From: an uncultured Pseudomonadota bacterium
GTDB taxonomy: Bacteria > SAR324 > NAC60-12
DNA length: 26,726 bases
Direction of reading: 5' to 3'
Assembly: GCA_913020725.1 (NCBI GenBank)
Contig: CAJWCD010000038.1
Location: forward strand, 1-26,726
The position numbers and the translations under genes were made by a program. The notes beneath the pieces are model-generated. The model was not told the origin of the DNA and did no database searches. It saw nothing but the letters and a program-made list of their open reading frames with translations. Positions 1,718 to 24,041 of this stretch are shown piece after piece (the stretch's first letter is position 1; the number at the start of each line of letters is the position of its first letter).

Positions 1718-3162
1718 AATTCCGGTTCCAGTTTTCCGTACAGACTTTGAAAACGGGCAAATTGCCGCTGGTATGCTTCAAGGTGCTCCGTTCGAGGCTT
1801 GATGACTTCACTGACAGGTGGGCGTTGACAGATTTCGGTGGGGGATCTCCCGGTGACGGCCAGCATCGCCAGTCTTGCGGCACCAAAGGCCGGTCCGAGT
1901 TCCGAATCTGCGTGTCTTAAGAGGGGACGCTGCAGAACAGAGGCAAGGATCTCCGCCCAGCGTCGGCTGCGAGAGCCACCGCCGATCAAGGAGACCTCCC
2001 CGATTTCCGCGCCTGCTGCAAGCAGGACTTGCTGACAATCCCCAAAAGCATAAGCCACCCCTTCCAGCACAGCCTGAACCATGTCGCTTGTGTCATGGGC
2101 ATGGGTCAACCCAAGAAAGGCTCCTGTTGCACTGGGGTTGTTATGCGGGGTTCTTTCGCCTGAAAGGTAGGGAAGAAAGAGCAACTGTCCCGGTTCAAGT
2201 GGTTTCTCTTCAAGTTCTTCAATCAAACTGCCCTCAGTGCGTTTCATGCACTTGGCCAGCCAACTCAAACAACTGGAGGCGCTCAGAATGACTCCCATCT
2301 GATGCCAGGTCTCCGGAAGGCAATGGCAGAATGCGTGGGCGCCTCGGTCCGGATTGGGAAGAAATTGTGAGTTGACGACGAAATAAACACCAGAGGTGCC
2401 CAGGGATAAAAAAGCTGACCCCGGTTCGACAGCACCAACTCCGATTGCGCCAGCGGCATTGTCTCCTGCGCTTCCAGCGACCATGACATGCTTAGGCATC
2501 CCCCATGCTTGCGCAAGTTGACTGCGCAGGGTGCCCCCCGGCTCGCTCCCTTCAACCAGCCGGGGCATGTGTTCCCGAGTCAACCCGGTGGCTTCCAGTA
2601 TGAGGTCCGACCAGTCCCTAGCGGTGGTGTCCATCCAGAGCGTTCCTGCGGAATCCGACATGTCCGAAATCGCTTCCCCGGTCAGCTTCAGGCGCAGGTA
2701 ATCTTTTGGCAAAAGGACTGTACGGGTTCTTGCGAAAACTTCCGGTTCATGCTTCCGCACCCAGCAAAGTTTCGGAGCGGTGAACCCTGGCATCGCCAGA
2801 TTGCCCGTGATTTGACGCAATTGCGGAACCCGTTCCTCCAGTTCCCTGCATTCGTTTCCGGAGCGCCCATCGTTCCAGAGGATAGCTGGACGCTGCACTT
2901 CACCCTTTTCATCAAGCAAAACAGCCCCGTGCATTTGTCCGGAAAAGCCAATACCTGCCACTTCACTGAGGGATATTTGTTTCTTCAAGTCGGCAATTCC
3001 CTGTTGCAGAGCCTCCCACCAATCCTCGGGATTCTGCTCGGACCACAACGGGTGAGGGCGGCTAATTGTGAGGGGGACGCTGGATTCGGCCAGCACGGAC
3101 TGGTCATCCCCCATCATGATGGTTTTGACCGCCGATGTCCCAAGGTCGATACCAATGTACAT
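1690..3162 (-). CDS. xylB: Xylulokinase
   Basis: Starts MYIGIDLGTSAVK (ATG at 3162). FSGQMHG, WNDGRS, GFTAPK, LLPKDY, GDNAAGA, LGTSG and YLSGERTPHN are characteristic of the XylB subfamily. Confidence 0.9.
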   Translation of the reverse strand: MYIGIDLGTSAVKTIMMGDDQSVLAESSVPLTISRPHPLWSEQNPEDWWEALQQGIADLKKQISLSEVAGIGFSGQMHGAVLLDEKGEVQRPAILWNDGRSGNECRELEERVPQLRQITGNLAMPGFTAPKLCWVRKHEPEVFARTRTVLLPKDYLRLKLTGEAISDMSDSAGTLWMDTTARDWSDLILEATGLTREHMPRLVEGSEPGGTLRSQLAQAWGMPKHVMVAGSAGDNAAGAIGVGAVEPGSAFLSLGTSGVYFVVNSQFLPNPDRGAHAFCHCLPETWHQMGVILSASSCLSWLAKCMKRTEGSLIEELEEKPLEPGQLLFLPYLSGERTPHNNPSATGAFLGLTHAHDTSDMVQAVLEGVAYAFGDCQQVLLAAGAEIGEVSLIGGGSRSRRWAEILASVLQRPLLRHADSELGPAFGAARLAMLAVTGRSPTEICQRPPVSEVIKPRTEHLEAYQRQFARFQSLYGKLEPEFQGGAAMGG

Positions 3163-3267
3163 GTGTAGACTCCAAATCTGGGTTATTGAATTCCCGCGTT
3201 CCACCGGCTATTGCAACACCTGTTGTCTGAAAAGGTCACGCGGTAAGTTACGTTCTTCGTGTGGTAG

Positions 3268-6983: not shown

Positions 6984-7041
6984 TCGTCAAGTTCGTGGGC
7001 GAACAACTTCAGGGTTGGTCTGTTACGGGATTTGCGTTATT

Positions 7042-7878
7042 TCAAGCTCCGGCAACCCCTGCTGCTCGAGCATGGTCCAGCATGTACTCCCGACCCGTGA
7101 GCATGTCCTGAAGTGAACCGAATCCGTTCATGTAGTGCCCTGTGAACCCATTTGCTTCAATGCGTTTGAAAAGGTCTCCAAAATCCACAGTACCCGTTCC
7201 GGGCAGCATGTGGAGTTCGTACTCCCCGTTGTTGTCCGCCACCCGTACCTCTTCACAAAGGCTCATGTCCATCCCATCCACAAAACCCGCGATGCCGATC
7301 GGGTCAAAATGCGCGTGGTTGATGGTGAAAGACCAGCGCAGGTTCGGGGATTGAATTTGTGCAAAATAATACTTGGTGTCTGCTAGGTTATCCGGCATGT
7401 AGTGAACTTCTGCCAGTTCTGGTTCACCGTTGAGGTTTTCGAGCAACAACAGGACATTTTGCTTTTCGGCATACTCGACCGCCCGTTTCAGACGGTCAAT
7501 GCTGGCCTGCATCCGCATTTTCCGGCAACTCGTGAAATGGTAACCGCCGTGAACCACGATCCACTCGGCACCAATTCGTTTTGCCAAATCAATGTAGGCT
7601 CGCAGGTAGGCGTCCGTGGCATCACGAAGAAACGGGGAGATTTCTGCGATGTTGACTCCGGAAAGAGTGTGCAAGCCCAGATGCAAGCCCTGCTGGTCAC
7701 AAACGGTTCGGATGCCCTTGCAACGTTCCTCATCAAAGCTCTCCAGTTGGTTTGGAGCAATGTCCGTTTGAATGTCGAAATAATAAACTTCGTTTTCGGC
7801 AGCCCATTTGACGGCTTCTTCAGCAGAAACCCGACGACCCACATCAACCCCGATGCGATAGCGAAGATTTGTTTCCAT
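7042..7878 (-). CDS. Sugar-phosphate isomerase/epimerase family (xylose-isomerase-like TIM barrel)
   Basis: GLHT, VVHGG, LLLENL, NHAH, ADNNGEYELHMLPGTGTVDF. Start uncertain (7878, 7884 or 7896). Confidence 0.8.
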   Translation of the reverse strand: METNLRYRIGVDVGRRVSAEEAVKWAAENEVYYFDIQTDIAPNQLESFDEERCKGIRTVCDQQGLHLGLHTLSGVNIAEISPFLRDATDAYLRAYIDLAKRIGAEWIVVHGGYHFTSCRKMRMQASIDRLKRAVEYAEKQNVLLLLENLNGEPELAEVHYMPDNLADTKYYFAQIQSPNLRWSFTINHAHFDPIGIAGFVDGMDMSLCEEVRVADNNGEYELHMLPGTGTVDFGDLFKRIEANGFTGHYMNGFGSLQDMLTGREYMLDHARAAGVAGA

Positions 7879-8050
7879 TTTCATCAAACCTTTCATGGTA
7901 TGGATTGGAACTTCCCGTTTGGCAGAACCGGAAATGATTGACAAGCTTGTACGCTTTACAAAAATCTCAAATTAGCTTCTTCAGATTCAACATTTTGGAA
8001 TCACAGAGAACACAGAAGCAGTTCCATTATTCGACTCTGCTTCCTGACTT

Positions 8051-9172
8051 TCAGTAGGCAAACTCCTTGACCGCGTCTTGATTGATTTCAAATCCAAGTC
8101 CCGGCTTTTTCGGCAAGGTGAGCCACTCCCCTTCCGGATCTGGCAGTCCATCAAACACCTGACGGCAGCACTCCACGGACAGGTAGTGCATTTCAACCAT
8201 CCCGCCATGGGCCAATCCGGCATGGAGGTGCATGTTGAAATGAGGCCAAGCCCCGCCGTTGTCAATCCCGACATTGAAAGCCTGGGCCATTCCCGCAATC
8301 CGGATGCACTGGGTGAATCCCCCAGAAATCACAACATTGGGTTGGATGATGTCCACCGAGTTGGCAACCATCAGATCCCGGAAGCGATAGGCCAATCCTT
8401 CGTTTTGTCCACATGCCAAAGGAATACGCGTCTGTCGACGCATCTCTGCTAGTTGCCGGACATCGTTTTGGGTGATGGGTTCTTCAAAAAAAGCGATCTC
8501 GTAGGGTTCCAAAGCCTTTGCCAGCTTGATGGCATGGAAGGGATCGAGGTTGCAGTTGGCGTCGATGTATAACTTGATTTGAGGGCCAATGGCTTCTCGA
8601 ACAGTCCGGACCCGCTGGATGTCTTCTGCAAGGACCTCGTCCAAGGTCCGCATATTCTTGTTGCGGATTGCTCCATCACTCACCGTCATTTTCAAACCAG
8701 TAAACCCGCGCTCCACCCAAAGTTTTGCCGCCTCTCCCAACTGCTCCCGCTCAAAAAAGGGAAACCCGAAGGTGGCATAAACGGGAACACGTTCACGCGC
8801 TCCACCCAGCAATCGCCACACGGGTTCCTTGTAAACTTTTCCCTTAATGTCCCAAAGCGCGACATCAATGGCAGCTATGGCATGTGCCGCATACCCCGTC
8901 TGTCCACGCGGTGAAAGCAGCCAGTAAAGTTTCTCCCAGATTTTTTCAGTGGCCATCGGGTCATCGCCAACCAGTTCCGGAGCCACGACCTTGTTGATAG
9001 CCGCTGCAACCACCTCCTCATTGGTGATGCCTGTCATGCCAAACCCAACGCATCCGGAAGTGGTCTCAATTTCCACCAAACAGATTTTGAAATGCACCAC
9101 CCGATTCAAACCCAACACATCAATGGTGATGGGAACGCGGAGTGGAGTTGCGGAGATTTTGCTGATCTTCAT
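8051..9172 (-). CDS. Mandelate racemase/muconate-lactonizing enzyme family protein (enolase superfamily)
   Basis: AIDVALWDIKGK...PVWRLLGG signature, DAN, FEEP and PGLG. Confidence 0.9.
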   Translation of the reverse strand: MKISKISATPLRVPITIDVLGLNRVVHFKICLVEIETTSGCVGFGMTGITNEEVVAAAINKVVAPELVGDDPMATEKIWEKLYWLLSPRGQTGYAAHAIAAIDVALWDIKGKVYKEPVWRLLGGARERVPVYATFGFPFFEREQLGEAAKLWVERGFTGLKMTVSDGAIRNKNMRTLDEVLAEDIQRVRTVREAIGPQIKLYIDANCNLDPFHAIKLAKALEPYEIAFFEEPITQNDVRQLAEMRRQTRIPLACGQNEGLAYRFRDLMVANSVDIIQPNVVISGGFTQCIRIAGMAQAFNVGIDNGGAWPHFNMHLHAGLAHGGMVEMHYLSVECCRQVFDGLPDPEGEWLTLPKKPGLGFEINQDAVKEFAY

Positions 9173-9179
9173 GAAGCGC

Positions 9180-10664
9180 TCAACTTGCTTTTTTCCGGGT
9201 CAGCCAGCCATAAATCGCAGGACCGCAGAGTCCGAGGAAGGCCAGCAGCAGAAACAGCACCGCGAGTGGTTGGGTAAAGATCAGCCACCACTTCCCCTCA
9301 AACATTTTCAGAGAGTTCTGCAAATTGGATTCAACCATTTCACCAAGGATCAATCCGACCGCGATGGGTGCGACGGCAAAACCGTGCCGCCTGGCAAAGA
9401 AGCCGATCACTCCAAAGATCAAAACGATCCAGACATCCAGCAAGGATGAACTTAAGGAATAGGAACCCACGATAGACAACGCGAAAACGATAGGCCACAA
9501 AATGGCCGCAGGAATCAGGGAGATGCGTGCGAAAAATTTCGCAGCATAAAGTCCCATGCCGAGGAACATGAGATTGGCAACCAGCATCGCCCCGAATATT
9601 TGATAGACCTTGTCCACTTGTTCGGTGAACAGATACGGACCCGGACGTAAGCCATGGACCATCAGTCCTACCAAAATGATGGCTGTGGTTCCACTACCCG
9701 GAATGCCGAGCACCATCGTGGGCACCATGGCACCGCCGGTGGCTGCGTTGTTTGCGGCCTCAGCGCCTGCAATTCCTTCAATGGCACCTTTGCCGAATTC
9801 CTCCTTGTTCTTGGACCAGCGGCGCGCTTCGGAATATCCGATCATGGAGGCCACAGTCGCGCCTTCTGCCGGCAGAATCCCAATGAATGTGCCAATTCCA
9901 CAAGACCGCAGGATGGTCTTCCAGATTTTTTTATAATCCTCCTTGCTGGGAAGCTTGACTGCGTTCATGCCGATTGCATTCGCAATTCGATTACCGCGTT
10001 TGGACTGCACCAGCAGTTCGGACATCGCAAACAAGCCAATGAAGACCGGGACAAAAGACAAGCCTTCATACAACTCGTAGTTACCAAACAGGAACCTCTC
10101 GATACCGGTCGCCCGCTCTGCCCCGATCGTTGCCAACCAAACTCCGAAAACACCGCCGATGAGGTTCTTAACCGCACCCCCGGAACTGATACTCGCCAGC
10201 ATCGAAAGTCCGAAGAGGGTCAATGCAAAATATTCCGGAGGGCGAAACTGATAGGCGACTCGTGCAAGCAAGGGGGCAGCAATACAAAGAACTATGATGG
10301 AAAAGACGCCGCCAACTGTACTCGACACTACCGCAACTCCGAGTGCCCGACCCGCTTCTCCTCGTTGTGCCAGCGGAAACCCGTCAAAGGTTGTTGCGGC
10401 CGCTGCCGAGGTGCCCGGAGTATTGATCAAAATAGCGGTGATTGATCCGGCAAAGGTCGCTGACACATAAATAGTCGCCAGCACCGTGATGGCATGCACC
10501 GGATCCATGGTGAGTGTGAAGGGCAGCAACAAGGCGGCACCAGTGGTAGCACCCAGACCGGGAAGCACCCCGATAACCACACCAATGATCGTGGTGGCGA
10601 AGATGAGCAGTAAAAGGTGCAGGTCGAGAACCACCGACCCCATGGCTTGCAGGGCTTCTAGCAT
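9180..10664 (-). CDS. tctA: Tripartite tricarboxylate transporter large permease
   Basis: GVLPGLG, ILINTPGT, DGFPLA, EAANNA, LGIPGS and GLRPGP are TctA motifs; 494 aa, polytopic. Confidence 0.92.
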   Translation of the reverse strand: MLEALQAMGSVVLDLHLLLLIFATTIIGVVIGVLPGLGATTGAALLLPFTLTMDPVHAITVLATIYVSATFAGSITAILINTPGTSAAAATTFDGFPLAQRGEAGRALGVAVVSSTVGGVFSIIVLCIAAPLLARVAYQFRPPEYFALTLFGLSMLASISSGGAVKNLIGGVFGVWLATIGAERATGIERFLFGNYELYEGLSFVPVFIGLFAMSELLVQSKRGNRIANAIGMNAVKLPSKEDYKKIWKTILRSCGIGTFIGILPAEGATVASMIGYSEARRWSKNKEEFGKGAIEGIAGAEAANNAATGGAMVPTMVLGIPGSGTTAIILVGLMVHGLRPGPYLFTEQVDKVYQIFGAMLVANLMFLGMGLYAAKFFARISLIPAAILWPIVFALSIVGSYSLSSSLLDVWIVLIFGVIGFFARRHGFAVAPIAVGLILGEMVESNLQNSLKMFEGKWWLIFTQPLAVLFLLLAFLGLCGPAIYGWLTRKKAS

Positions 10665-10675
10665 CGTCGTGCGAA

Positions 10676-11167
10676 TTATCCGTAGTACCAGTTCAGCAAA
10701 ATACCTCGCGGGAAACGAATCCTCAGCACCAAATCGAAAAGCAGAAAGATCAGAAGGGGGGTGATGAGGGCATTAGTGAGTGCAACAAGGATGCGTTTTT
10801 CACCCCATAAAAAGCACATCAGGAACATCACCACTGCAATTGCGATAAACAGGTCCAGACTTGTTGTCAACCCGTAGAAGACAACAAGTAAGACCATGGA
10901 TCCCCAAGTCTGGTAAGGCTCGATCGGAATCTGTGCTGGTGGTGATCTGCGTAACTGGAGGGTGAGCAGGGCCACAAGCCCCAAATTGATGGCCATCAAG
11001 AAGATTGGAAACGCACGGGGCTGCATGCTTTTACCAACAATCATAGGTGGCGAAAGCTCAAGTTGCAGGGAGAGCCAAATCACGACGATGGAAAACACCG
11101 TGATGATCCCCGGCACCACATAAATCCTTGCCTTCACTGGACTGGGTGCTCCCGTGACAGGGAGCAC
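10676..11167 (-). CDS. tctB: Tripartite tricarboxylate transporter small permease
   Basis: 163 aa hydrophobic protein with PRAFP and C-terminal FDLVLRIRFPRG, lying between tctC and tctA. Confidence 0.85.
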   Translation of the reverse strand: MLPVTGAPSPVKARIYVVPGIITVFSIVVIWLSLQLELSPPMIVGKSMQPRAFPIFLMAINLGLVALLTLQLRRSPPAQIPIEPYQTWGSMVLLVVFYGLTTSLDLFIAIAVVMFLMCFLWGEKRILVALTNALITPLLIFLLFDLVLRIRFPRGILLNWYYG

Positions 11168-11194
11168 CTTAGCTACATGGATATAAGGAGGGGG

Positions 11195-12166
11195 CTAATT
11201 GATGAGCCCCATTTCCTTCAACGCAGGGCCGAATTCAGCAACCATGGATTTGATTTGCTCACCCCAAGGTCCGGAAGGCTGTGGCGAAGTCGAATCGAGG
11301 CCGGAATTCTTCAAATAAGCCTGATACATGGAATGATCCATGGCCTTCATTATGCCCTTCTCAAGTTCTGCGCGACGTGCTGCAGAGACTCCGGCATGGG
11401 TGACGAATCCACGGGTGGTCGAAAGCACAAGGTCAATCCCAAGTGCCTTGGCGGTTTTGGCCTTTGGAATCGGTGCCATGCCATTGTGAGCAAGGATGAT
11501 CAGCGGACAAATGTCTCCTGCTTCGACCGGAGCAGCAGCTTCAGACAGGTTCAAAGTACCCACGTCAATTGAACCAGCCACGAGTTGGGTTGCGAGTTCG
11601 CCGCCGCCCTTGAAGGGAAGGTAAGTCGGCATCGGCTGTCCGAACCGCTTTGCCCACAGGAAGACCGTGATGTGGTCAATCGTTCCCGTCTGGGTGCCGC
11701 CGAACTTGATCTTGTCGCCCCGCCTCATTCCGGCCACAAACGCTTCCGGAGTCTTATAGGGACTGGTCTTGCAATTGACCATCAGGATTTGAGGATCATT
11801 CGTGCCGCGAGCAAGCGGAGCCATATCCTCAACTCTTAGCTTGGTCTTGCCTTTGCCCATCGTCATGGCGTGGCCTACCGTAAAAGTCAGGATGGTGTTG
11901 CCATCCGCCGGTCGTGTCATGAAGTAGTTCATGGCCAGGGCACCGCCCCCGCCGCGCTTGTTCACAACCACCATGTCCTGTTTGAGGGTGCGGCGCGAAC
12001 GCAGCATCATCATACGTGAGTTGACATCCGTGCCCCCGCCGGCTCCGGCATGTGTGATGACTTCAATTGCCGGCTGACCGGCTATGGCTACCGAAACACA
12101 CGCCAGCAGCATCACACTGGTCAATGTGACTGCTCCAGCTTTCAGCATTCTTTTTGAGTGTCTCAT
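11195..12166 (-). CDS. tctC: Tripartite tricarboxylate transporter substrate-binding protein
   Basis: Signal peptide (MRHSKRMLK...VAIA), AGGGTD, VVNKRGGGG, PADGNT and PFKGGG. GGAG 7 nt upstream of the ATG at 12166. Confidence 0.88.
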   Translation of the reverse strand: MRHSKRMLKAGAVTLTSVMLLACVSVAIAGQPAIEVITHAGAGGGTDVNSRMMMLRSRRTLKQDMVVVNKRGGGGALAMNYFMTRPADGNTILTFTVGHAMTMGKGKTKLRVEDMAPLARGTNDPQILMVNCKTSPYKTPEAFVAGMRRGDKIKFGGTQTGTIDHITVFLWAKRFGQPMPTYLPFKGGGELATQLVAGSIDVGTLNLSEAAAPVEAGDICPLIILAHNGMAPIPKAKTAKALGIDLVLSTTRGFVTHAGVSAARRAELEKGIMKAMDHSMYQAYLKNSGLDSTSPQPSGPWGEQIKSMVAEFGPALKEMGLIN

Positions 12167-12209
12167 TAGAGAGCTCCATTTCATGGTTAAGAAGAATGTA
12201 CTCGATTGA

Positions 12210-12231
12210 GTCAAGCTACAATTAGCTTGAC
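12210..12231. repeat. Perfect 9-bp inverted repeat in the tctC/gntR intergenic region
   Basis: GTCAAGCTA-CAAT-TAGCTTGAC. Confidence 0.6.
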
Positions 12232-12238
12232 CGTGTTT

Positions 12239-12267
12239 AATATACAATATACAAATATTGGTGTCAA
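12239..12267 (-). promoter_or_regulatory. Sigma70 promoter for the tctCBA operon, overlapped by a probable GntR operator
   Basis: On the - strand, TTGACA (12267-12262), 17 bp spacer, TATATT (12244-12239). A tandem TATACAA repeat at 12241-12254 resembles GntR/FadR-type sites. Confidence 0.7.
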
Positions 12268-12290
12268 GAATATTTTTTTGCCTAATTGTA

Positions 12291-12941
12291 ATGCAGCCCA
12301 TCAACCGTCAACCATTGGCAATGCAGGTCGCTTCTCGCATTCGGGATTTGATCGCCACGGATCAGCTTCGTCTCGGAACCCCACTGCGCGAACAGGCACT
12401 CTGCAAGGAGCTTTCCGTCTCCCGGACCCCACTCCGTGAGGCGCTCAAGCAGCTCATCGCTGAAGGACTGGTCGAGCAAGTCCCGTATCATGGTGTGGCG
12501 GTGGCCAATCCGGATCTGCCCTCCGTTGAGCAGATGCTGGAATTGCTCGGTGCCTTGGAAGGGTTCTCGGGCGAATTGGCCTGTCAGCGGGCAACGGATA
12601 ACGAGATTGCGGAAATTCGCAAACTGACCGTGCAGATGCGTGAGGCGTATGATCGGCAGAAGCGTCTGCCTTACTACAAGCTCAACCAAGCGATACACCG
12701 GGCGATCGTGCAGTTTTCGAAGAATGACGAATTGATCCGGACACATGAGCGACTCAACTCACGGCTCTACCGCATCCGCTACCTCTCCAATCGTCGCACT
12801 GACCGCTGGCACACCGCCGTGGAAGAACATGACGGGATTCTGCAAGCATTGGCGGCGCGGAATGGCACGAAACTGAACCAACTGCTGCGGGAACACCTCG
12901 GCCACACCTGGACCAAGGTCCGGGACCACTACGAACCCTGA
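12291..12941 (+). CDS. GntR-family (FCD domain) transcriptional regulator
   Basis: LREQALCKELSVSRTPLREAL winged HTH; C-terminal NQAIH and EEH FCD motifs. Confidence 0.92.
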   Translation: MQPINRQPLAMQVASRIRDLIATDQLRLGTPLREQALCKELSVSRTPLREALKQLIAEGLVEQVPYHGVAVANPDLPSVEQMLELLGALEGFSGELACQRATDNEIAEIRKLTVQMREAYDRQKRLPYYKLNQAIHRAIVQFSKNDELIRTHERLNSRLYRIRYLSNRRTDRWHTAVEEHDGILQALAARNGTKLNQLLREHLGHTWTKVRDHYEP

Positions 12942-12954
12942 CTCAGGAACTTTC

Positions 12955-13953
12955 ATGCCCACCCCTACCCTAGGACTGCTGCTTGGTGACCCCAGCGGGA
13001 TCGGCCCCGAACTTTGTGCAAAACTGGTTGCGGAAGAGATGATGGTTAGCAACCGCCGGATCATGGTGATTGGAGACCGCATAGTTCTCGAAAAAGGGTG
13101 TGCCACGGCAGGAGTTAACTTGGACATCGAAACGGTTGACTCATCTAAAGACCTGCCGGAATCCGGAGTGGGTTTGCTGAACCACCCCCGGATTGCGGCT
13201 GAAACAATCCAAGTAGGCGCCGCAACTGTTGCCAGCGGGACCTTCGCCCTTGAAAGCCTCCGGACGGCGCTAGACCTTGCTCGAACTGGGAGCCTCGATG
13301 GTTTCACGTTTGCGCCCTTCAACAAGGAGTCTTTGCGACTGGGAGGCAACACCCACGAGGATGAACTGCGCTTTGCCGCAGAAGAGTTGCGCTTTGAGGG
13401 TTACTGTGGGGAACTCAACACCACCAAGGGTTTGTGGACCTCGCGGGTCACTTCCCACATTCCCCTCAAAGATGTGTCCGCGCAGATCACCCAGTCAGGA
13501 ATCGAAAAAGCAGTCAACTTGGCGCATCAAACATTGCTGGATGCCGGTGTGACGGAACCCCGAATTGCGGTTGCCGCGCTCAATCCCCATGCGGGAGACG
13601 GCGGCAATTTTGGCACGGAAGAAATCGACACCATCGGCCCCGCTGTGACTTCACTGCAGCAAAAGGGGTTTCCGGTGCAAGGGCCGTTTCCGGCAGATAC
13701 CGTTTTTGTCCGCACCACCCGAGGGGATTTTGATGCGGTTGTAACCATGTATCACGATCAGGGGCAAATCGCGTTGAAACTGCTGGGTTTTGACAGGGGC
13801 GTTACGGTTTTAGGGGGCTTACCTATTCCGATCACCACGCCTGCCCATGGAACCGCGTTCGACATTGCAGGAAAAGGCGTTGCCAGCGTGGATGCCCTCA
13901 AGGAAGCTTGGAACTTGCTAACCAATATGGTGACCTCACGACTCGTGGCTTAG
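12955..13953 (+). CDS. PdxA-family dehydrogenase (catabolic paralog)
   Basis: GDPSGIGPE, TSHIPL, LNPHAGDGG, GPFPADT, MYHDQG and TPAHGTAFDIAGKG. It lacks the GHTE motif and sits in a catabolic context. Confidence 0.85.
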   Translation: MPTPTLGLLLGDPSGIGPELCAKLVAEEMMVSNRRIMVIGDRIVLEKGCATAGVNLDIETVDSSKDLPESGVGLLNHPRIAAETIQVGAATVASGTFALESLRTALDLARTGSLDGFTFAPFNKESLRLGGNTHEDELRFAAEELRFEGYCGELNTTKGLWTSRVTSHIPLKDVSAQITQSGIEKAVNLAHQTLLDAGVTEPRIAVAALNPHAGDGGNFGTEEIDTIGPAVTSLQQKGFPVQGPFPADTVFVRTTRGDFDAVVTMYHDQGQIALKLLGFDRGVTVLGGLPIPITTPAHGTAFDIAGKGVASVDALKEAWNLLTNMVTSRLVA

Positions 13954-13982
13954 CCGGCCTTCAATCATTCAAGCAAACCACC

Positions 13983-14915
13983 ATGACCACTTCAGCATCA
14001 CCCAGCCCCTACACTGGGGTTTTTCCCATCGCACCCACTCCTTTCAACGAGGACGAATCACTCGACCTGCCTGGACAGCAGCGGGTGTTGGACTGCATGA
14101 TTGATCAAGGCGTGGACGGCATTTGCATTCTCGCCAACTACTCCGAGCAGTTCCTGCTCACAGACAAGGAACGAAATCTCCTGCTTGAGCTTTGCTTGAA
14201 ACATGTGGCAGGACGGGTTCCAGTGATTGTCACATGCAGCCATTTCAGCACTCGAGTGGCGGTGGAACGCGCCGTTCGCGCAGAAGTGGCCGGAGCCAAA
14301 ATGCTCATGCTCATGCCTCCGTATCACGGAGCGGCCTTGCGGGCAGATGAACAAGGCGCCTTTGAGCATTTTGCGAAAATCGCAGAAGCCATTTCCATCC
14401 CAATCATGGTGCAGGATGCCCCTTTGAGTGGCGTTGCCCTCTCCGTGAATTTGCTCGCCCGGATGGCCAAGGAACTGCCTCTGGTCAGCTATTTCAAGAT
14501 TGAAATGCCCGGAACTGCCGACAAACTGCGGACTCTGATCACGGTGAGCGGTGGCACGATTGCAGGGCCATTTGATGGCGAGGAATCGATCACCCTGATG
14601 GCTGATCTGGACGCAGGAGCCACTGGAACGATGCCGAGCGCCATGCTCCCGGACTTGATCAAGCCCGTTTTGGAGCAGCACCTCTCCGGACGACGAGATG
14701 AAGCCGCTGCACAATACGCCCGCATCCTTCCCTTGATCAACTACGAGAACCGACAGTGCGGCTTGCGGGCCACCAAGGCGGCAATGCTGGAAGGCGGGGT
14801 GATCAAGTCGGATACGATTCGACACCCACTACCTCCCCTTCATCCTGAAACTCGCAAAGGACTACTGGAACTGGCTGGTCCGTTGAATCCGCTTGTCTTG
14901 AGGTGGGGGCGCTGA
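13983..14915 (+). CDS. araD: DHDPS-family enzyme, close to L-2-keto-3-deoxyarabinonate dehydratase
   Basis: ILANYSEQF, MPPYHGA, IMVQDAP, YFKIE (Schiff-base Lys), DGEESITL, LINYENRQ and PLVLRW match the Azospirillum L-KDA dehydratase as I recall it. Confidence 0.75.
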   Translation: MTTSASPSPYTGVFPIAPTPFNEDESLDLPGQQRVLDCMIDQGVDGICILANYSEQFLLTDKERNLLLELCLKHVAGRVPVIVTCSHFSTRVAVERAVRAEVAGAKMLMLMPPYHGAALRADEQGAFEHFAKIAEAISIPIMVQDAPLSGVALSVNLLARMAKELPLVSYFKIEMPGTADKLRTLITVSGGTIAGPFDGEESITLMADLDAGATGTMPSAMLPDLIKPVLEQHLSGRRDEAAAQYARILPLINYENRQCGLRATKAAMLEGGVIKSDTIRHPLPPLHPETRKGLLELAGPLNPLVLRWGR

Positions 14916-14985
14916 CGAGTCTATCGGGATCGTTTCATCTGAACCCGGCACACGGAGTGCTGGATTCCACCCCCCGGAGTTTCAC

Positions 14986-15915
14986 TCAGAACGCACCTTT
15001 GTGCTGTCGGCGTGTGTTTCCGTCAAGCCCGCCGCTGACGGCCCATTCAGCAAATAATTCGGACTTGCGCTCGAAACGGCGCGGCTGCCAGTTTTCCGTC
15101 AAAAAATCCTCATCGGCATAGTATTCGGCGAGTCCGCCGCACGGGGAATGGACGTACCAGAAATACGCGGAGGAAATCGGATGCCGCCCGGGGCCAAGCT
15201 GTGTTTTCCACCCTTCGCGGCTGATGTGCAAACCTCCGCCGAAAACCTCGTGGATGTCCCTGACAGTGAACGCCACATGGTTCAGCTTGGATTTCCCTGT
15301 GGGACTCTTGAGCAGGAAGAGGTTGTGATGACCACCACGCAGTGCGCAGCGCAGGAAGGTGCCGTGCTGCGGATAGCGGTCGGACACCTGAAAACCCAGC
15401 ATTTCCGTGTAAAACAACTCTGCCTCAGCCAAGTCCGGGACAAAGAGCACCACATGGCCCACATGAATCGGAATTGCCCGCTCGTAAACGGGGCTGGGTG
15501 CGTCTAACCGGTTAGGTGATCCCGGCGTGTTCATGGCCGCTCCGGTAACCGTAACCGATTTGCGTTGCGTCAGCCGAAAAGACAGTGATAATCCGTTGGG
15601 GTCAGTGATCCGGACGAGGCCATCCTTCCCCTCTGTAAACAATGGGTTCCCAGTAATCCGTTTGATCAAGGCATCAAGGTTACGTTTTCCCTTCACCCCC
15701 CACACCACTTCGCGCAGAGTCGAACCGGATTCCATCGCCGGAGGCAGGAGCTTGGCGTCATGGGGTCGGAGGCACACCTCCGTCCCGTCCAGAGTCTCAA
15801 ACCGAGCGGAGTGTTTGGTGCTGGACGCCTTCCGGAGACCCCAATCGCTGAGGAACTTTCGGCACAATGCCATGTCCTCGACTCCGTAAGTGATTGCGTC
15901 AATTCCGGTTAGCAT
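14986..15915 (-). CDS. VOC-family protein, type I extradiol ring-cleavage dioxygenase-like
   Basis: Two-domain VOC with GHVVL, HHNL, NHVAF and GRHPISSAYFWY..P.G..AEY. The His/His/Glu metal triad and Tyr are present. Confidence 0.8.
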   Translation of the reverse strand: MLTGIDAITYGVEDMALCRKFLSDWGLRKASSTKHSARFETLDGTEVCLRPHDAKLLPPAMESGSTLREVVWGVKGKRNLDALIKRITGNPLFTEGKDGLVRITDPNGLSLSFRLTQRKSVTVTGAAMNTPGSPNRLDAPSPVYERAIPIHVGHVVLFVPDLAEAELFYTEMLGFQVSDRYPQHGTFLRCALRGGHHNLFLLKSPTGKSKLNHVAFTVRDIHEVFGGGLHISREGWKTQLGPGRHPISSAYFWYVHSPCGGLAEYYADEDFLTENWQPRRFERKSELFAEWAVSGGLDGNTRRQHKGAF

Positions 15916-15932
15916 GATAATTCCATCAGGTT

Positions 15933-16748
15933 TCAAATGGCAAGTGTTGCCGCAAGGTTGGCTAGTCCGCGAGTGACGCTGAAGGCGGTCAGGGCGGAAG
16001 TCTTTGGGTTTTCCGGAGAGGGCAATCCCTCCAAGACGATTTGAAAATTTCCTGCCTGCGACTGCACCTCGATTTCGTGAGTGTTGCGAGCAGCGTTTGG
16101 ATCGGCGCACAGTTCGACCTCAGTTTGATCAAATCCAAGTCCAGCGAGGGCGACGGTAGCTGCGACGTTCGCATTTTTCGGAAAGCGCAGTGCCGCCTCG
16201 CGTGCCGTACCGTGGTAGAAGACAGTGGCTTCCTGCAATTGATCGAGGTCGCAGGCCGACTCAGCAGGCGTGTCACGCCATGCAACAGGAGGTTTGCGTG
16301 AGCGATACCGCACTTGGGTCAGGCCGGAAAACCGCGCTGCCGCAAGCGCATCCACCGCGCCAATGGCCCCGGCGGGTAACAGGATTTGACGGCCCGACTG
16401 CACAGCAGCGGCTTTCAGGTGGTCGTACAACTCCGCATCGGCCAAGGCACCGATGGAGATGACCATCAAATCAGTTCCGGATTGCAGCACCGTTTCTCCG
16501 AACTCCCGGACCGCAGTGTGTCCCGCACACTCGGCGACGATACTGGGCAAGAGCGCCAGCAGGTCTTCCAAGCACTCCACCACGGAAACGGTCCGCCCCG
16601 CAGCTTTCTGAACCGCTGCTTGGCGTCCGGGCTTGCACAGGATTCCAACCACCTCAGCTCTGCCCTCCGAGGCAGCGAACAGGTGCCGCAACACCGTCCG
16701 GGAAATTCCGCCGTAACCAATCAATCCAACACGAGTCATCGGCTTCAT
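15933..16748 (-). CDS. nadX: L-aspartate dehydrogenase-like protein (NadX family)
   Basis: GYGGI, ECAGH, SIGALAD, GAIGAVD, FPKNANVAAT, NTHEI and NPKTS. Confidence 0.85.
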   Translation of the reverse strand: MKPMTRVGLIGYGGISRTVLRHLFAASEGRAEVVGILCKPGRQAAVQKAAGRTVSVVECLEDLLALLPSIVAECAGHTAVREFGETVLQSGTDLMVISIGALADAELYDHLKAAAVQSGRQILLPAGAIGAVDALAAARFSGLTQVRYRSRKPPVAWRDTPAESACDLDQLQEATVFYHGTAREAALRFPKNANVAATVALAGLGFDQTEVELCADPNAARNTHEIEVQSQAGNFQIVLEGLPSPENPKTSALTAFSVTRGLANLAATLAI

Positions 16749-18391
16749 TTCGTTCTCACCGGAGGTCCGGCGAAGGGAACCTTAAACGGCCCAATAGCCT
16801 GCATGTTCACCTCCACCAATGCGGGGCCATTGACAGCGAGGGCTTCCCGGAATTTTTCTCCAAACTCGGAAATGGAGGTGACGTTCCAGTGCGGCACGCT
16901 CAGCGACTCAGATAGCTTGGCAAAGTCCGGAAGTCGCAAATCCGTGAAGTAATGGCGTCCACCGAAGCGCGCATCCTGAATGTTGCGGATGACCCCGTAG
17001 CCCTGATCATTCATCACCAGCAGGGTCACATCGGCCTGTTCCTGCACGGCGGTGGCGAGTTCACCGATGTTGAGCATCAGCCCTCCGTCTCCACAGAGTG
17101 CGACCACCTTGCGCCCCTCGGCACCAAGGGCGGCTCCAATTCCCATCGGCATCCCTTGTCCGATCCCCCCGCCCAAGGCGTGGATGCCGTTGCGAGGAGC
17201 AAATATTTTCAGCAGACGATTACCCCAAGTGCTGTTCGAGATGGTCACATCACGCACCCAGAGTGCATCTTGCTGCAACTCAGTTTGCAAGGCATCAACC
17301 AAAGCGTCGTAGGGACCAAGGGTGGTCCGGAGCCGAACCTCCGCCGCTTTCCGTGCTTTCGCCAAATCTTGAGCGAAGGAGGGATCAATATGCAGTTGGC
17401 CTTGGAGTCGACCAGCCAATCCGGACAGCACCACGGCGCTGTCGCCACAGACGAATCCGGAGTTCGGGTACGACCGTCCATCCGCCGCAGAATTCGCGTC
17501 GCTCTGGAGCAAGGGGGCGGGCAAGGCTAGTTGATAATTCTTGGTTTCGTTGCTGCGCAGGCGTGAACCGACCACAAGCATCAGGTCGCATGTGCGGTAG
17601 AACGCCTCTGCGTCCGGGTTCATGTTGAATGCTCCCAGTGTGAGCGGATGATCTTCCGGTATGATTCCTCGTCCGTTAACGCTCGTGACCACGCCGACCC
17701 CGTATTCAACCAAACGCATTGCCCCCTCACGGGCATGTCGTGCGCCGCCGCCAAGCCAGAGCAGTGGGCGTTTTGCGGTGGATAGTCGTTCCGCAAGTTG
17801 ATCCAGAATCTGCTCTCCAGGATGTGAAATCGCCACTGGAAGCGTTGAAAAATCGGCTGGCATTGGCAACGTGGCGGCTTGTACGTCGGCGGGGATTTCA
17901 ACACTGACTGGTCCCGTCGGCGCGGTCAATGCGGTGCGCACCGCTTCTCGCAACACGCCCAGCGCGGACTCCGGAGACCAGACGCGATAGGCCGCCTTGG
18001 AAATCGCCCGCAGCATTTCCAATTGCGACTTCGCCTCGTGGATGTAGCCGCATCCCCGGTCGAGGTACGGCAAATCAATTTGTCCGGTGAGGTGCAACAG
18101 CGGCGTCCCTGCGGTTTCGGCTTCCACCAAGGCTCCGGCGGCATTGCCCGCTCCGGTTCCTGTACTGGTAAAAGCTACCCCCAGTTCACCACGAGTCCGG
18201 GCGTAAGCATCGGCCATGTTGAGAGCCCCGGCCTCGCCTCGGCTGGGCACGAAGCGAATCTTGTTTCGGCGTCCAATCGCATCAAGCATCGGCAGGTTGT
18301 GGATGCTGACCACGCCAAACGCCGTCTGCACCCCACAGGCTTCCAGAAATGTGGCAACAACCTCTCCGGTAGTGACGGTTTGCTCAGACAT
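16745..18391 (-). CDS. Thiamine-diphosphate-dependent enzyme (acetolactate synthase/decarboxylase family)
   Basis: RGEAGA catalytic Glu, STGTG and GDGG...NDQGYG ThDP motif. Start ATG 18391 overlaps the SDR stop. Confidence 0.9.
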   Translation of the reverse strand: MSEQTVTTGEVVATFLEACGVQTAFGVVSIHNLPMLDAIGRRNKIRFVPSRGEAGALNMADAYARTRGELGVAFTSTGTGAGNAAGALVEAETAGTPLLHLTGQIDLPYLDRGCGYIHEAKSQLEMLRAISKAAYRVWSPESALGVLREAVRTALTAPTGPVSVEIPADVQAATLPMPADFSTLPVAISHPGEQILDQLAERLSTAKRPLLWLGGGARHAREGAMRLVEYGVGVVTSVNGRGIIPEDHPLTLGAFNMNPDAEAFYRTCDLMLVVGSRLRSNETKNYQLALPAPLLQSDANSAADGRSYPNSGFVCGDSAVVLSGLAGRLQGQLHIDPSFAQDLAKARKAAEVRLRTTLGPYDALVDALQTELQQDALWVRDVTISNSTWGNRLLKIFAPRNGIHALGGGIGQGMPMGIGAALGAEGRKVVALCGDGGLMLNIGELATAVQEQADVTLLVMNDQGYGVIRNIQDARFGGRHYFTDLRLPDFAKLSESLSVPHWNVTSISEFGEKFREALAVNGPALVEVNMQAIGPFKVPFAGPPVRTK

Positions 18392-19175
18392 AGCGCGCGA
18401 CTCCTCCATCGACTTCCAAGGCGGCTCCGGTGATGAACCCCGCCTTTGGCGAGACCAGAAACGCAATCGCCGCCGCCGCCTCTTCGGGTGAGCCGAAGCG
18501 TCCCAGCGGGATGTTCCGCAGTTTTGCTTGCTCTGCCAGCCATGCGTCAAGACTGATGCCTTCGGAAGCTTGAGCCTTGTAGCGCCGCCGCCACTGCTCG
18601 GACTCGACGGTGCCGATCAGGATCGAGTTGACTCGGATGCCCTTGGGTGCAAACTCCCGGCTCATCGAGCGCAGCAGGTTTTGCACTCCGGCTCGAGCCG
18701 AAGAGGTCGCCACCAAGCGAGGCTCCGGTTGCCGGGAGAGCAGCGAATTGACAACGAGCATCGAGCCGACTAGCGACTTTTCCAACTCCGGCAGAAAGGC
18801 GCGGGTCGGACGGATCACGCTGAAATACTTGAGTTGCAATTCCGCCATCCAGTCTTCATCCTCGGTGTCGGCAAAGGTGCTGATGCGGGCCTGTCCAGCA
18901 TTGTTAACGAGGCCGTCCACCGCGCCAAACCAGCCGAGAACGGCTTCCCGGAATTCTGCCACAGCCTCGGCATCCAGCACATCGCACGGCAGTGCCCAGA
19001 CCGCATCCCCATACTGAGATTGGAATTCCGCCAGCGCGGTTTCCAGCCGTTCCGGATTCCGGGCGCAAAACGCGACCTTCGCCCCTTCCTCCAGCAAAGT
19101 TTTCACGGTAGCCCGCCCGATTCCAGCAGAACCTCCGGTGACGATGATCACGCGATCCTTGAGTTTTAAGTCCAT
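18384..19175 (-). CDS. SDR oxidoreductase (atypical active site)
   Basis: TGGSAGIG, NNAG, TSSAR at the YxxxK position, and PLGRFG. Confidence 0.88.
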   Translation of the reverse strand: MDLKLKDRVIIVTGGSAGIGRATVKTLLEEGAKVAFCARNPERLETALAEFQSQYGDAVWALPCDVLDAEAVAEFREAVLGWFGAVDGLVNNAGQARISTFADTEDEDWMAELQLKYFSVIRPTRAFLPELEKSLVGSMLVVNSLLSRQPEPRLVATSSARAGVQNLLRSMSREFAPKGIRVNSILIGTVESEQWRRRYKAQASEGISLDAWLAEQAKLRNIPLGRFGSPEEAAAAIAFLVSPKAGFITGAALEVDGGVARYV

Positions 19176-19186
19176 GATGTCCTTTG

Positions 19187-19975
19187 TTATCCTCGATGCC
19201 CTAATCGTTTGGAGATGGCTGCTGCCGCTTCCAGCACTCGGTCTTTGATTTCACCTTCCAAGGCTTCGCGGTCAAACACGGTTTCCGGACCCGTGATGTT
19301 GATGGCCGCAATGATCTTTCCGGAAGCATCCCGGATTCCTGCCCCAACACTGACCACCCCGGCCTCGAACGCAGACAGGCTGAGAGCGTAGCCCTGCTCC
19401 TGTTCCTTGCCAAGCAACCGATGGAGTTCCGGAACCGAGTTGGCCGTCTGTTTCGTGACCTGTTCGAGCATGGTGCCTTCGTACAATTGCTGCAACTCCG
19501 GCAGGGAAAGCTCGGAGAGCAGAACGCGCCCCATCGTGGTGGCATGGGCTGGAAAGCGCGTACCGACTCCCACGTTGCTCGCCAAGTGTCGGCGTCCGGC
19601 GATGCGCAGCAGGTACACGACCTCCCGATTATCCAGCACCCCCAAATGCACCGAGCAGCCGGTTTGTTCGTTCAACGTGTTCAGAAAAGGACGGACGACT
19701 TCCAACAATTCCTGCGAGGCCAAATACTCGAAGCCCAAGTTCAGCACCCGATTGCCTAGCTGATAGGTCTTGCGCTGCGGATGGCGCTCAAGGTACTTGA
19801 GTTTTTCTAACGTGTGCGCTAAACGGAACACCGTGGAACGAGGCAACTCAAGCACCCTTGCCAGTTCCGACAAACCCCACTCCTGCTGATTGTGGGTAAA
19901 CTTTTCTAGTAGCCGCATGCCTCGCACCAAACCGGGCACAAGATAACGGTCTTCCGGAGGGGATGTTTCCGTCAT
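19187..19975 (-). CDS. IclR-family transcriptional regulator
   Basis: GLSELARVLELPRSTVFRL HTH; GTRFPAHATTMGRVLL; AAINITGP. Confidence 0.92.
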   Translation of the reverse strand: MTETSPPEDRYLVPGLVRGMRLLEKFTHNQQEWGLSELARVLELPRSTVFRLAHTLEKLKYLERHPQRKTYQLGNRVLNLGFEYLASQELLEVVRPFLNTLNEQTGCSVHLGVLDNREVVYLLRIAGRRHLASNVGVGTRFPAHATTMGRVLLSELSLPELQQLYEGTMLEQVTKQTANSVPELHRLLGKEQEQGYALSLSAFEAGVVSVGAGIRDASGKIIAAINITGPETVFDREALEGEIKDRVLEAAAAISKRLGHRG

Positions 19976-20784
19976 TGTCTTTGTCGGGAAAAGAACTTCT
20001 GTAGAGCATTGTTGAACACTTCCGGTTGCTCGATGTAGCACGCATGTCCCGCTCCTAGAAGCGATTGATACCGAGCACCTTCAAGCATTTTGGCAATCTG
20101 CTGGCTGTGTGCTTCCGGAGTGACCTGGTCGGCACTGCCGCACAGCACCAAACAGGGTGTTTGCATTTGAACAACATCTGCTCCCAAATCTCCCTGCGCG
20201 AGCATCATTGTCGCCTGTCGGTAGCCGTCCGGACGAATCTGTGCCATTGCTTCGCGCACCTGCTCGACTTGTTCCGGAGTGGCTGAACTGGAAAGCAGAC
20301 GGGCCGCTCGTGCTTGAGCCACGCCTTCCGGACCCAACTGCTCCAAGTTGCGCAGGCGCTCCTGAACCTTCTCCGGAACCGGATCACCGGGCTGCATCTG
20401 GTAGCCTACTGCACATGAAGCCAACACCAAGGCTGTGGTGCGGGTGTACTTCCGGGCGAACGCCGCCGCCATCAGCGTCCCCAAGGAATGCCCCACCAAG
20501 CAACATTCCGGAATCTGCATCGCGTCCAGAAACGCGTCCAGTGCGTCGGCATAATCCTGTGCATCAGGTTGAGGCATATCCAGTGGGGTGGATTCCCCGT
20601 AGCCGGGAGCATCCCAAGCAAGTACCCGGAACTGACCGGATAGCACGGCAAGCTGGTTTTGCCACGAACCCGAGTTGGAGCCAATCCCGTGCAACAGCAC
20701 CAACGGGGAGCCGTCGCCGGCTTCTCGGAAGCTGAATTGCCGATTTCCTGCGGCAATCGTCCGGTGGTCAAACGACAGGTTCAT
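19972..20784 (-). CDS. Alpha/beta-fold hydrolase
   Basis: LLHGIG, WDAPGYG, GHSLG nucleophile elbow, Asp (ADQVTP) and His (AGHAC). Confidence 0.9.
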   Translation of the reverse strand: MNLSFDHRTIAAGNRQFSFREAGDGSPLVLLHGIGSNSGSWQNQLAVLSGQFRVLAWDAPGYGESTPLDMPQPDAQDYADALDAFLDAMQIPECCLVGHSLGTLMAAAFARKYTRTTALVLASCAVGYQMQPGDPVPEKVQERLRNLEQLGPEGVAQARAARLLSSSATPEQVEQVREAMAQIRPDGYRQATMMLAQGDLGADVVQMQTPCLVLCGSADQVTPEAHSQQIAKMLEGARYQSLLGAGHACYIEQPEVFNNALQKFFSRQRQ

Positions 20785-20791
20785 AGTCCGA

Positions 20792-21559: not shown

Positions 21560-21560
21560 C

Positions 21561-22993: not shown

Positions 22994-23014
22994 AGTTGGC
23001 CTAGTCCTTCCAAC

Positions 23015-24004: not shown

Positions 24005-24041
24005 ATTGTCTCCTTGGTTTGAGATTAGGTTCTCGAAATTC

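Follow-up and report, generated by a model that had tools for sequence, protein, structure and literature searches.

The divergon at positions 7042-14915 of contig CAJWCD010000038.1 (assembly GCA_913020725.1, from an uncultured bacterium of the GTDB lineage SAR324; NAC60-12) raises the question of which compound is taken up and degraded by a tripartite tricarboxylate transporter (TTT) encoded together with a PdxA-like, an AraD-like, an enolase-superfamily and a TIM-barrel protein and a GntR-type regulator. We call the window the whole stretch of DNA analyzed, that is, positions 1 to 26,726 of the contig. Our answer, to which we assign a probability of roughly 0.55, is that the divergon would encode a modified form of the lower bacterial L-ascorbate pathway. 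Based on the list of open reading frames (ORFs) and on Pfam matches, each above its gathering score, eight genes were located:

7042-7896, minus strand (ORF to 7944): xylose-isomerase-like TIM barrel of about 284 amino acids (PF01261, E 1.2e-23)
8051-9172, minus strand: enolase-superfamily gene, 373 amino acids (PF13378 and PF02746)
9180-10664, minus strand: TctA, large membrane subunit of the TTT (PF01970, E 4e-150)
10676-11167, minus strand: TctB, small membrane subunit of the TTT (PF07331, E 8e-10)
11195-12184, minus strand (ORF to 12304): TctC, periplasmic solute receptor (PF03401, E 4.5e-20)
12291-12941, plus strand (ORF from 12258, putative start): GntR/FCD regulator, FadR-like (PF00392 and PF07729)
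12955-13953, plus strand: PdxA-family gene (PF04166, E 1e-88)
13983-14915, plus strand (ORF from 13908, putative start at Met26): DHDPS-family (AraD-type) gene, matching PDB entries 7c0c and 3fkk

The start of tctC was placed at Met41 of its ORF according to the lengths of its homologues. The adjacent TctA, TctB and TctC genes, all above the Pfam cut-offs, make up a TTT, and the regulator combines an N-terminal GntR helix-turn-helix with a C-terminal FCD domain, as in the FadR/FCD subfamily of the GntR family. On the minus arm tctC, tctB, tctA and the enolase gene are closely packed, with a gap of about 150 bases before the TIM barrel. This is the gene set that a first-pass annotation of the sequence had described on the two arms, and its remark that no kinase is present also holds, as none was found by Pfam among the ORFs within 7042-14915.

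The reference for our reading is a route described in two studies. According to Stack and colleagues (2020, J Am Chem Soc 142:1657), Ralstonia eutropha (Cupriavidus necator) H16 reportedly oxidises L-ascorbate and opens the ring to give 2,3-diketo-L-gulonate; a WD40-like protein is said to turn this into 2-carboxy-L-lyxonolactone, an amidohydrolase to open the lactone, and a PdxA-family enzyme with catalytic NAD+ to remove a carboxyl group, which leaves L-lyxonate. Ghasempur and colleagues (2014, Biochemistry 53:3357) are said to have described the conversion of L-lyxonate to 2-oxoglutarate by the dehydratase LyxD, a DHDPS-family dehydratase and an aldehyde dehydrogenase. Transposed to the window, TctCBA, a transporter of a type that usually carries di- or tricarboxylates, would import 2-carboxy-L-threo-pentonate (2-carboxy-L-lyxonate), a non-enzymatic product of the vitamin C decay product 2,3-diketo-L-gulonate. 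The PdxA-like protein would strip one carboxyl group through a transient NAD-dependent oxidation, yielding L-lyxonate (or L-xylonate), which the enolase-family enzyme would dehydrate to 2-keto-3-deoxy-L-pentonate. The AraD-type enzyme would dehydrate this product to 2-oxoglutarate semialdehyde, and an aldehyde dehydrogenase encoded outside the cluster would oxidise the semialdehyde to 2-oxoglutarate. The substrate and every one of these reactions are predictions; they start from what was observed directly, namely the families to which the genes belong, a PdxA-like protein that has lost its phosphate site, the close AraD match, the non-canonical site of the enolase and the conserved co-occurrence of the genes. 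According to a passage of PMC11066805, the non-enzymatic rearrangement of diketogulonate gives two lactones and 2-carboxy-L-pentonate as the free diacid, and these products decay to L-lyxonate and L-xylonate. Since the 2-carboxy-L-pentonate formed spontaneously is a diacid, it would suit a TTT importer. Growth of Pseudomonas aeruginosa PAO1 on L-lyxonate is mentioned, with the L-lyxonate pathway cited, in a passage of PMC6336799.

The PdxA-like protein scored 267 bits with the NCBIfam model TIGR00557, below the cut-off of 290, and 208 bits with NF002891 (D-threonate 4-phosphate dehydrogenase), whose cut-off is 583. HMMER alignments with five solved PdxA/PdxA2 chains placed D136-E137-L138 where the GHT motif stands, and a comparison with E. 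coli PdxA revealed Ile for the Arg of FIRTS, Thr for the Asn of GVNIT and Ala for the Asp preceding HGT. GHT and the FIRTS Arg (Arg292 of E. coli PdxA) are the phosphate-binding residues of PdxA. With both scores below the cut-offs and with GHT and the Arg replaced, the protein falls outside the PdxA/PdxA2 group of 4-phospho-hydroxy-acid dehydrogenases. It has instead the PdxA fold without the phosphate site, a combination that reportedly marks the 2-carboxy-L-lyxonate decarboxylase of Stack 2020. The pattern D-[ED]-x plus a hydrophobic residue is common to all 89 clade members fetched; these were chosen by similarity, so that the pattern describes the clade and is no independent test. The housekeeping PdxA of the genome is a second copy, located on contig C114, in which PGHTE, N and IIRTSVDH are all retained. 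Judged by its residues, the protein of the divergon would come from a clade that acts on no phosphate esters, and its predicted activity is the decarboxylation of a non-phosphorylated branched hydroxy-diacid of the 2-carboxy-L-lyxonate type. The absence of phosphate-binding residues and of a kinase in the divergon supports the non-phosphorylative route proposed at first pass.

These residues also bear on a four-carbon acid-sugar (threonate or erythronate) pathway of the PdxA2 type that would draw on a kinase gene located outside the divergon. The protein does match structures of D-threonate-4-phosphate dehydrogenase (E 1e-56), and some Rhizobiales loci of the clade lie near genes for a DUF1537 kinase, a class II aldolase and OtnI. 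We nevertheless consider this pathway very improbable, given the replaced GHT and Arg, the NF002891 score, the absence of a DUF1537 kinase from the window, and the presence of an AraD and an enolase that would have no role in it.

The AraD-like protein matched the Azospirillum L-2-keto-3-deoxyarabonate dehydratase (7c0c/3fkk) over residues 27-334 with an E value of 4.5e-113 and 381 bits. The lysine of YFKIE, which forms the Schiff base, is aligned in the AraD-like protein and 7c0c, as is characteristic of L-2-keto-3-deoxypentonate dehydratases. Because the protein aligns over its full length with a genuine AraD, this lysine included, its active site is ordinary for AraD. The earlier suggestion that AraD converts a C5 2-keto-3-deoxy acid to 2-oxoglutarate semialdehyde is probably right; the accompanying statement that three of the enzymes have altered active sites holds for two of them, the PdxA-like protein and the enolase, the AraD-like protein being ordinary for its own family. 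Identities to the AraD-like genes of related clusters range from 56 to 83%.

The enolase-superfamily enzyme is the least conventional member of the proposed route. The PF02746 and PF13378 domains and the conserved metal ligands D204 and E230 at strands 3 and 4 place it in the superfamily; its best NCBIfam match, galactonate dehydratase, reached 194 bits against a cut-off of 311, and it is 29% identical to the LyxD type. Its site was mapped by hhalign profile-profile alignment with LyxD-type enolases and by the fixed spacing of the barrel strands, as follows:

Window-type K161-M-T163 corresponds to LyxD-type K178-S-R180
Window-type D204 corresponds to LyxD-type E215
Window-type E230 corresponds to LyxD-type E241
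Window-type Q256 corresponds to LyxD-type E267 (third metal position)
Window-type N279 corresponds to LyxD-type D290 (Asp of the dyad)
Window-type G307 corresponds to LyxD-type H317 (His of the dyad)

LyxD is reportedly marked by a KxR motif on strand 2 and a dyad of His (strand 7) and Asp (strand 6), according to Ghasempur 2014. The window protein lacks the Arg of KxR and the dyad, and the Glu of the third metal position is a Gln. Its three best PDB matches, aligned residue by residue, all keep GE, QPD and the strand-7 His. The mapped positions are invariant within the window-type family, and the altered site is therefore a trait of the whole family; E258, two residues past Q256, is conserved too. 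This family is populous and has no name, with homologues of 384 amino acids and 64-72% identity in records named Ottowia, Variovorax, Methylocella, Sulfitobacter and others. Within the phylum it was found in one of 88 species genomes, that of the window, and a sample of 401 genomes of another class gave four matches. One of the loci (L150; G093:C87, 9036-14413) encodes a 66%-identical enolase whose neighbors are a LysR regulator, a TctC and a TctA of another kind (38% identical), and no PdxA-like or AraD-like gene was found in the stretch around this enolase, which means that the family is not confined to an ascorbate-type context. In spite of its site, the window enzyme is predicted from its gene context to be an L-pentonate dehydratase standing in for LyxD.

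That context was examined in 80 genome loci fetched with a PdxA-like profile, in which homologues were scored by tblastn (E < 1e-10, coverage of at least half). A GntR homologue was found in 53 of the 80 loci, TctA in 46, TctC in 43, an AraD-like gene in 23, any enolase in 20 and the TIM barrel in three. The arms co-occur in many genomes, and from this we conclude that the two of them form a functional unit, as the first-pass annotation had supposed; they do so in the related genomes G063, G059 and G060 and in alphaproteobacterial, gammaproteobacterial and metagenomic loci. That the arms are unrelated neighbours sharing an intergenic region by chance is a general possibility with nothing further in its favor, and we give it almost no credence, since same-genus, same-family, alphaproteobacterial, gammaproteobacterial and metagenomic loci keep the arms together despite rearrangements.

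The same counts speak to another alternative, an Azospirillum-type pathway for L-arabinonate or another L-pentonate in which the enolase and then AraD would act, the PdxA-like protein and the TIM barrel being left to a side reaction. The Azospirillum brasilense non-phosphorylative L-arabinose pathway does share with the window a close homologue of the AraD-like protein (3fkk, 7c0c), and the enolase matches arabinonate and galactonate dehydratase models below threshold. The upstream steps differ from those of the window, however: L-arabinonate dehydratase is reportedly an IlvD/EDD-family enzyme, and the Azospirillum pathway is not known to have a PdxA-like step. In addition, no gene accompanies the regulator and the transporter more constantly than the PdxA-like gene (by the GntR and TctA counts given above), which lies between GntR and AraD in one operon; the enolase is the least constant member, and the usual cargo of TTT systems is a di- or tricarboxylate. 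We regard this alternative as quite unlikely.

Close counterparts of the proposed route were found in six roseobacter loci (L003, L014, L067, L068, L073 and L074), in which TctC-TctB-TctA is followed by an enolase, an AraD-like gene, GntR and a PdxA-like gene. The enolase of L003 matched PDB entry 3stp with an E value of 4e-241 and carries K-S-R, QYD and the His; 3stp is reportedly the Labrenzia L-lyxonate dehydratase, and these three elements are those of LyxD. The roseobacter clusters and the window have in common the TTT type (TctA 63-66%), GntR, the PdxA-like protein (52-55%) and the AraD-like protein (57-61%), whereas the enolase of the roseobacter clusters is of the LyxD type and the TIM barrel is missing from them. 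L014 has an aldehyde dehydrogenase gene after the PdxA-like gene, and the cluster of Ruegeria pomeroyi has one as well; the family typified by the L014 gene occurs in seven of the 80 loci. The claim of the first-pass annotation that no described pathway has this combination of genes can no longer be maintained, since the set largely maps onto the lower L-ascorbate/L-lyxonate pathway and the roseobacter loci encode the same set.

A more extensive cluster lies on the megaplasmid of Ruegeria pomeroyi DSS-3 (L149; NC_006569.1, 261563-280513). It contains a PdxA-like gene (53% identical), a LyxD-type enolase, a DHDPS-family gene, an aldehyde dehydrogenase and an SMP-30/gluconolactonase, along with a TRAP transporter, an HbpS-like protein and a hypothetical protein weakly resembling a beta-propeller. 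These families are reportedly those of Stack 2020, and the locus looks like a complete ascorbate-type cluster. It differs from the window in using a TRAP transporter and in adding the lactonase and the propeller-like protein. In the genome of the window, which is 93% complete, we found no match to the R. pomeroyi propeller protein, and the matches to SGL were just 25% identical. As neither upper-pathway query (the propeller protein or the SGL lactonase) turned up in this genome, the divergon is read as a scavenging module for the diacid that forms spontaneously.

Four alphaproteobacterial loci (L004, L010, L026 and L151) link the two kinds of enolase. They have the same PdxA-like and TTT genes (TctA 83-85%) and carry a window-type enolase (51-55%) in the position of LyxD; an AraD-like gene is present in L004, L010 and L151 and was not found in the stretch fetched for L026. 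In L004 an aldehyde dehydrogenase adjoins the AraD-like gene. A quick maximum-likelihood tree nested the PdxA-like proteins of the four loci inside a 24-row clade associated with LyxD, and none of the loci examined, these four or others, has both types of enolase. The nested clade and the mutual exclusion of the enolases are the best evidence that the enolase lacking the dyad would do the job of LyxD.

Comparison with the two systems described at the outset defines what is shared and what is not. The R. eutropha H16 pathway reportedly has a PdxA-family enzyme acting on a non-phosphorylated branched diacid, an enolase-superfamily and a DHDPS-family dehydratase and no kinase, features that the window would share. 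The window cluster lacks its cytochrome b561, lactonase, WD40-like rearrangement enzyme and amidohydrolase, and has instead TTT uptake, another enolase family, an extra TIM barrel and no aldehyde dehydrogenase in the cluster. The L-lyxonate pathway of P. aeruginosa PAO1 reportedly proceeds, as the route of the window would, by two successive dehydrations to 2-oxoglutarate semialdehyde, with a GntR-type regulator and a DHDPS-family second enzyme; the first dehydratase of the window, at its 29% identity to the LyxD type, shows KxT, Gln, Asn and Gly in place of KxR, Glu, Asp and His. As to the last step, no 2-oxoglutarate-semialdehyde dehydrogenase was found in the cluster. Nine Pfam matches to aldehyde dehydrogenases were counted in the genome, and three full-length ones were scanned with NCBIfam: they correspond to HpaE, a methylmalonate-semialdehyde dehydrogenase and one generic enzyme.

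The TIM barrel is the member of the divergon that has no counterpart in these systems. No NCBIfam equivalog came near its cut-off, the best scores being 20-33 bits against cut-offs of 130-353 (33 against 305), and the protein atlas gave generic names alone. The family is highly conserved, at 67-91% identity across many marine metagenome proteins. An AlphaFold model (pLDDT 87.8) confirmed a xylose-isomerase-like barrel, with a Foldseek probability of 1.0, TM scores of 0.7-0.86 and VIA Z scores of 25-29. The nearest folds were the tagatose-epimerase-like MJ1311 (3wqo, Z 28.8), UlaE (27.8) and endonuclease IV (27.4), followed by ketose 3-epimerases (Z 25-26) and, within the range of 25-29, the isomerase Art22. 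The barrel has the same fold as the ketose 3-epimerases, UlaE and MJ1311 (root mean square deviation of 2.3-2.6 A over about 250-260 residues) and belongs to the same Pfam family, but the identity is just 13-21% and no NCBIfam equivalog is reached. Because endonuclease IV, epimerases, UlaE and an isomerase score alike, the fold does not fix the reaction. UxuA-type dehydratases were not among the fold matches listed, which excludes nothing. From the model, the protein would be a metal-dependent enzyme resembling sugar epimerases and isomerases, and our best guess is that it epimerises or isomerises next to a keto group of the imported compound or of an intermediate. It might convert the imported decay product of vitamin C (diketogulonate or a keto-pentonate, for example) into the substrate of the PdxA-like enzyme. 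Alternatively, in relatives without an enolase, it might take over the step of the pentonate dehydratase.

The barrel is tightly linked to the transporter. Its orthologues adjoin the same type of TTT in L010, L057, L080, L101, L102, L106, L140-L142 and L151, and barrel and window-type TctC are also linked on short contigs (L099, L110, L111, L115 and L117). TctC is 75-87% identical in the loci that bear the barrel and 51-53% in the roseobacter LyxD clusters; TctA is 82-91% identical in L010, L026, L057, L080, L101-L106 and L140, and 63-66% in the roseobacter clusters. Among the clusters that contain the barrel, L057 has a LyxD-type enolase and the window, L010 and L151 have the window type.

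Other genes stand beside the module in some relatives. At L010:8291-10278 and L151:14625-16618, the genes ahead of the TIM barrel and the TTT encode a family III CoA-transferase and an enoyl-CoA hydratase. A class-V aminotransferase and a second enoyl-CoA hydratase lie upstream of the AraD-like or PdxA-like gene at L004:3611-5730, at L026:6940-8963 and in L151. This arrangement suggests a CoA-dependent branch attached to the module in the alphaproteobacterial loci. A DRL-type oxidoreductase of 445-463 amino acids, consisting of PF21135 and a homoserine-dehydrogenase-type NAD domain, is encoded directly upstream of the TIM barrel in several relatives (L101:6770-8107, L100:346-1683 and L141:8753-10087; also L016:2083-3474), and its family occurs in 12 of the 80 PdxA-like loci, in Rhizobiales and others. 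The D-apionate oxidoisomerase ApnO was considered for this protein and rejected, since ApnO is KARI-like according to the paper on it.

In the lineage of the window the barrel was found in four of 45 genomes of the family. The locus of the same-genus genome G063 (L140) is syntenic, with identities of 83% for the AraD-like protein, 78% for the PdxA-like protein, 74% for GntR, 82% for TctC, 91% for TctA and 81% for the TIM barrel, and the synteny reaches the flanking SDR and acyl-CoA dehydrogenase genes. At G063:C101 4403-6826, tctA is followed directly by the TIM barrel and then by a family III CoA-transferase, with no enolase. Relative to G063, the window has apparently acquired the enolase, and the CoA-transferase segment has apparently dropped out of it. 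The genomes G059 and G060, of the same family, and the loci L101, L102 and L106 also have GntR and the CoA-transferase, and some of them the DRL-type oxidoreductase. Because the syntenic loci of relatives do without it, the enolase is likely a late insertion into a core of TTT, barrel, PdxA-like, AraD-like and GntR genes.

Several of these results weigh against the divergon being a lower L-ascorbate pathway. The enolase is without the catalytic residues of LyxD and of other MR-type dehydratases, and members of its family at 64-72% identity occur outside PdxA/AraD contexts, as in L150. In G063, G059, G060, L101, L102 and L106, the PdxA-like, AraD-like, TTT and TIM-barrel genes form a cluster that lacks an enolase, and a search of the five family genomes G000, G062, G063, G059 and G060 gave no LyxD orthologue, the best match being 34% identical. 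In the quick tree, the window PdxA-like protein sits with same-family relatives in a clade of its own of six rows, outside the 24-row clade associated with LyxD and about 50-55% identical to other PdxA-like proteins; as the clades are separate, equal function with the LyxD-associated PdxA-like proteins is assumed. The described pathway has no step for the TIM barrel, which is missing from the roseobacter clusters. The three full-length aldehyde dehydrogenases scanned all stayed below the NCBIfam cut-offs for 2-oxoglutarate-semialdehyde dehydrogenase. A CoA-transferase, enoyl-CoA hydratases, a class-V aminotransferase or a DRL-type oxidoreductase join the module in relatives, and such neighbors hint at further or different chemistry.

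Since the clusters of the closest relatives have no enolase and LyxD was not found in the family genomes searched, the core module may run a route that needs no pentonate dehydratase. Under this alternative the core (TTT, TIM barrel, PdxA-like, AraD-like and GntR) would degrade another hydroxy- or keto-dicarboxylate by an undescribed route: the barrel would epimerise, isomerise or dehydrate the keto-acid produced by the PdxA-like enzyme, the AraD-like enzyme would take the product, and the enolase, acquired later, would broaden the range of substrates. The six enolase-less cases just named, the lack of a LyxD orthologue among the matches in the family genomes searched, the separate PdxA-like clade, the tight tie of the barrel to one type of TctC, even on short contigs, and the adjoining CoA-transferase, enoyl-CoA hydratase or DRL oxidoreductase genes are consistent with it. 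However, the AraD-like protein is close to a genuine L-2-keto-3-deoxyarabonate dehydratase and to the AraD-like genes of the LyxD clusters (57-61%). Two types of enolase were independently recruited beside clusters that bear the barrel, which suggests that a pentonate dehydratase is needed, and other enolase-superfamily genes are present elsewhere in every one of these genomes. We see this route as a tentative possibility, on the unlikely side though not negligible. As a variant of the lower L-ascorbate pathway, the divergon would go beyond the known pathway in its enolase family without the dyad, its conserved TIM barrel and its separate PdxA-like clade. That two of these jointly hold something undescribed, namely a TIM-barrel step foreign to the ascorbate and L-lyxonate pathways and a dehydration of L-pentonates by the dyad-less enolase through a new catalytic arrangement, is a doubtful proposal, with perhaps some chance of being correct.

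The two arms are separated by a GntR-tctC intergenic region of about 106 bases, in which three features were identified:

12239-12267, minus strand: sigma-70-like promoter facing tctC (TTGACA, 17 nt, TATATT; consensus match only)
12242-12254, no strand assigned: conserved 13-mer ATACAATATACAA inside the promoter, a candidate GntR operator
12210-12231, no strand assigned: perfect 9-bp inverted repeat GTCAAGCTA-N4-TAGCTTGAC, between the promoter and the tctC start

The promoter has 11 of 12 matches and is the best of five sites in the region, shuffled sequence giving a mean of 4.1 sites. The 13-mer ATACAATATACAA or its reverse complement occurs in the GntR-TctC intergenic region of all seven same-lineage loci printed (the window, L140, L141, L142, L102, L106 and L101). 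The inverted repeat is not kept in the intergenic regions of the relatives, and an operator role for it is doubtful for this reason. As with other parts of the scheme, the regulatory step is a prediction: GntR would hold both arms repressed until its FCD domain binds an intermediate of the pathway.

The gene arrangement is not an artefact of assembly, since an independent metagenome contig (L098) repeats the gene order with 98-100% protein identity. The G+C content is 50-57% in the divergon (7001-15000) and 59-61% in several flanking kilobases, and the transporter genes share 82-91% identity with their counterparts in Alpha- and Gammaproteobacteria. The G+C contrast and this identity are compatible with lateral transfer of the module. 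On one side of it, two FGGY kinase genes occupy 176-3204, about 4 kb away and behind a CysZ-like gene, an acyl-CoA dehydrogenase and an SDR; they are convergent (176-1717, plus strand; 1690-3204, minus strand) and overlap by about 28 bases. On the other side, a long catabolic run occupies 14986-26157 on the minus strand. It includes an extradiol-dioxygenase-like and an aspartate-dehydrogenase-like gene, a thiamine-diphosphate enzyme, two SDRs, an IclR regulator, an alpha/beta hydrolase, a cupin, an NMT1/THI5-type ABC transporter and a Rieske/VanA-type oxygenase. It is probably a pathway for an aromatic or alicyclic acid with no relation to the divergon.

What is new in this locus is the TTT uptake, the dyad-less enolase in the place of LyxD, the conserved barrel enzyme and a lineage outside the Proteobacteria; the module is thus seen far from the proteobacteria in which the pathway was worked out. 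Gene context ties two abundant and well-conserved enzyme families to the pathway, that of the dyad-less enolase and that of the TIM barrel. Public annotation names are misleading for such genes, as with "PdxA" and with "L-rhamnonate dehydratase", the name carried by the R. pomeroyi LyxD-type enolase. Algae release large amounts of vitamin C, which in oxygenated seawater lasts no more than minutes to hours before it decays. If our reading is true, modules that scavenge its decay products would be a labile-carbon route for dark-ocean and oligotrophic bacteria.

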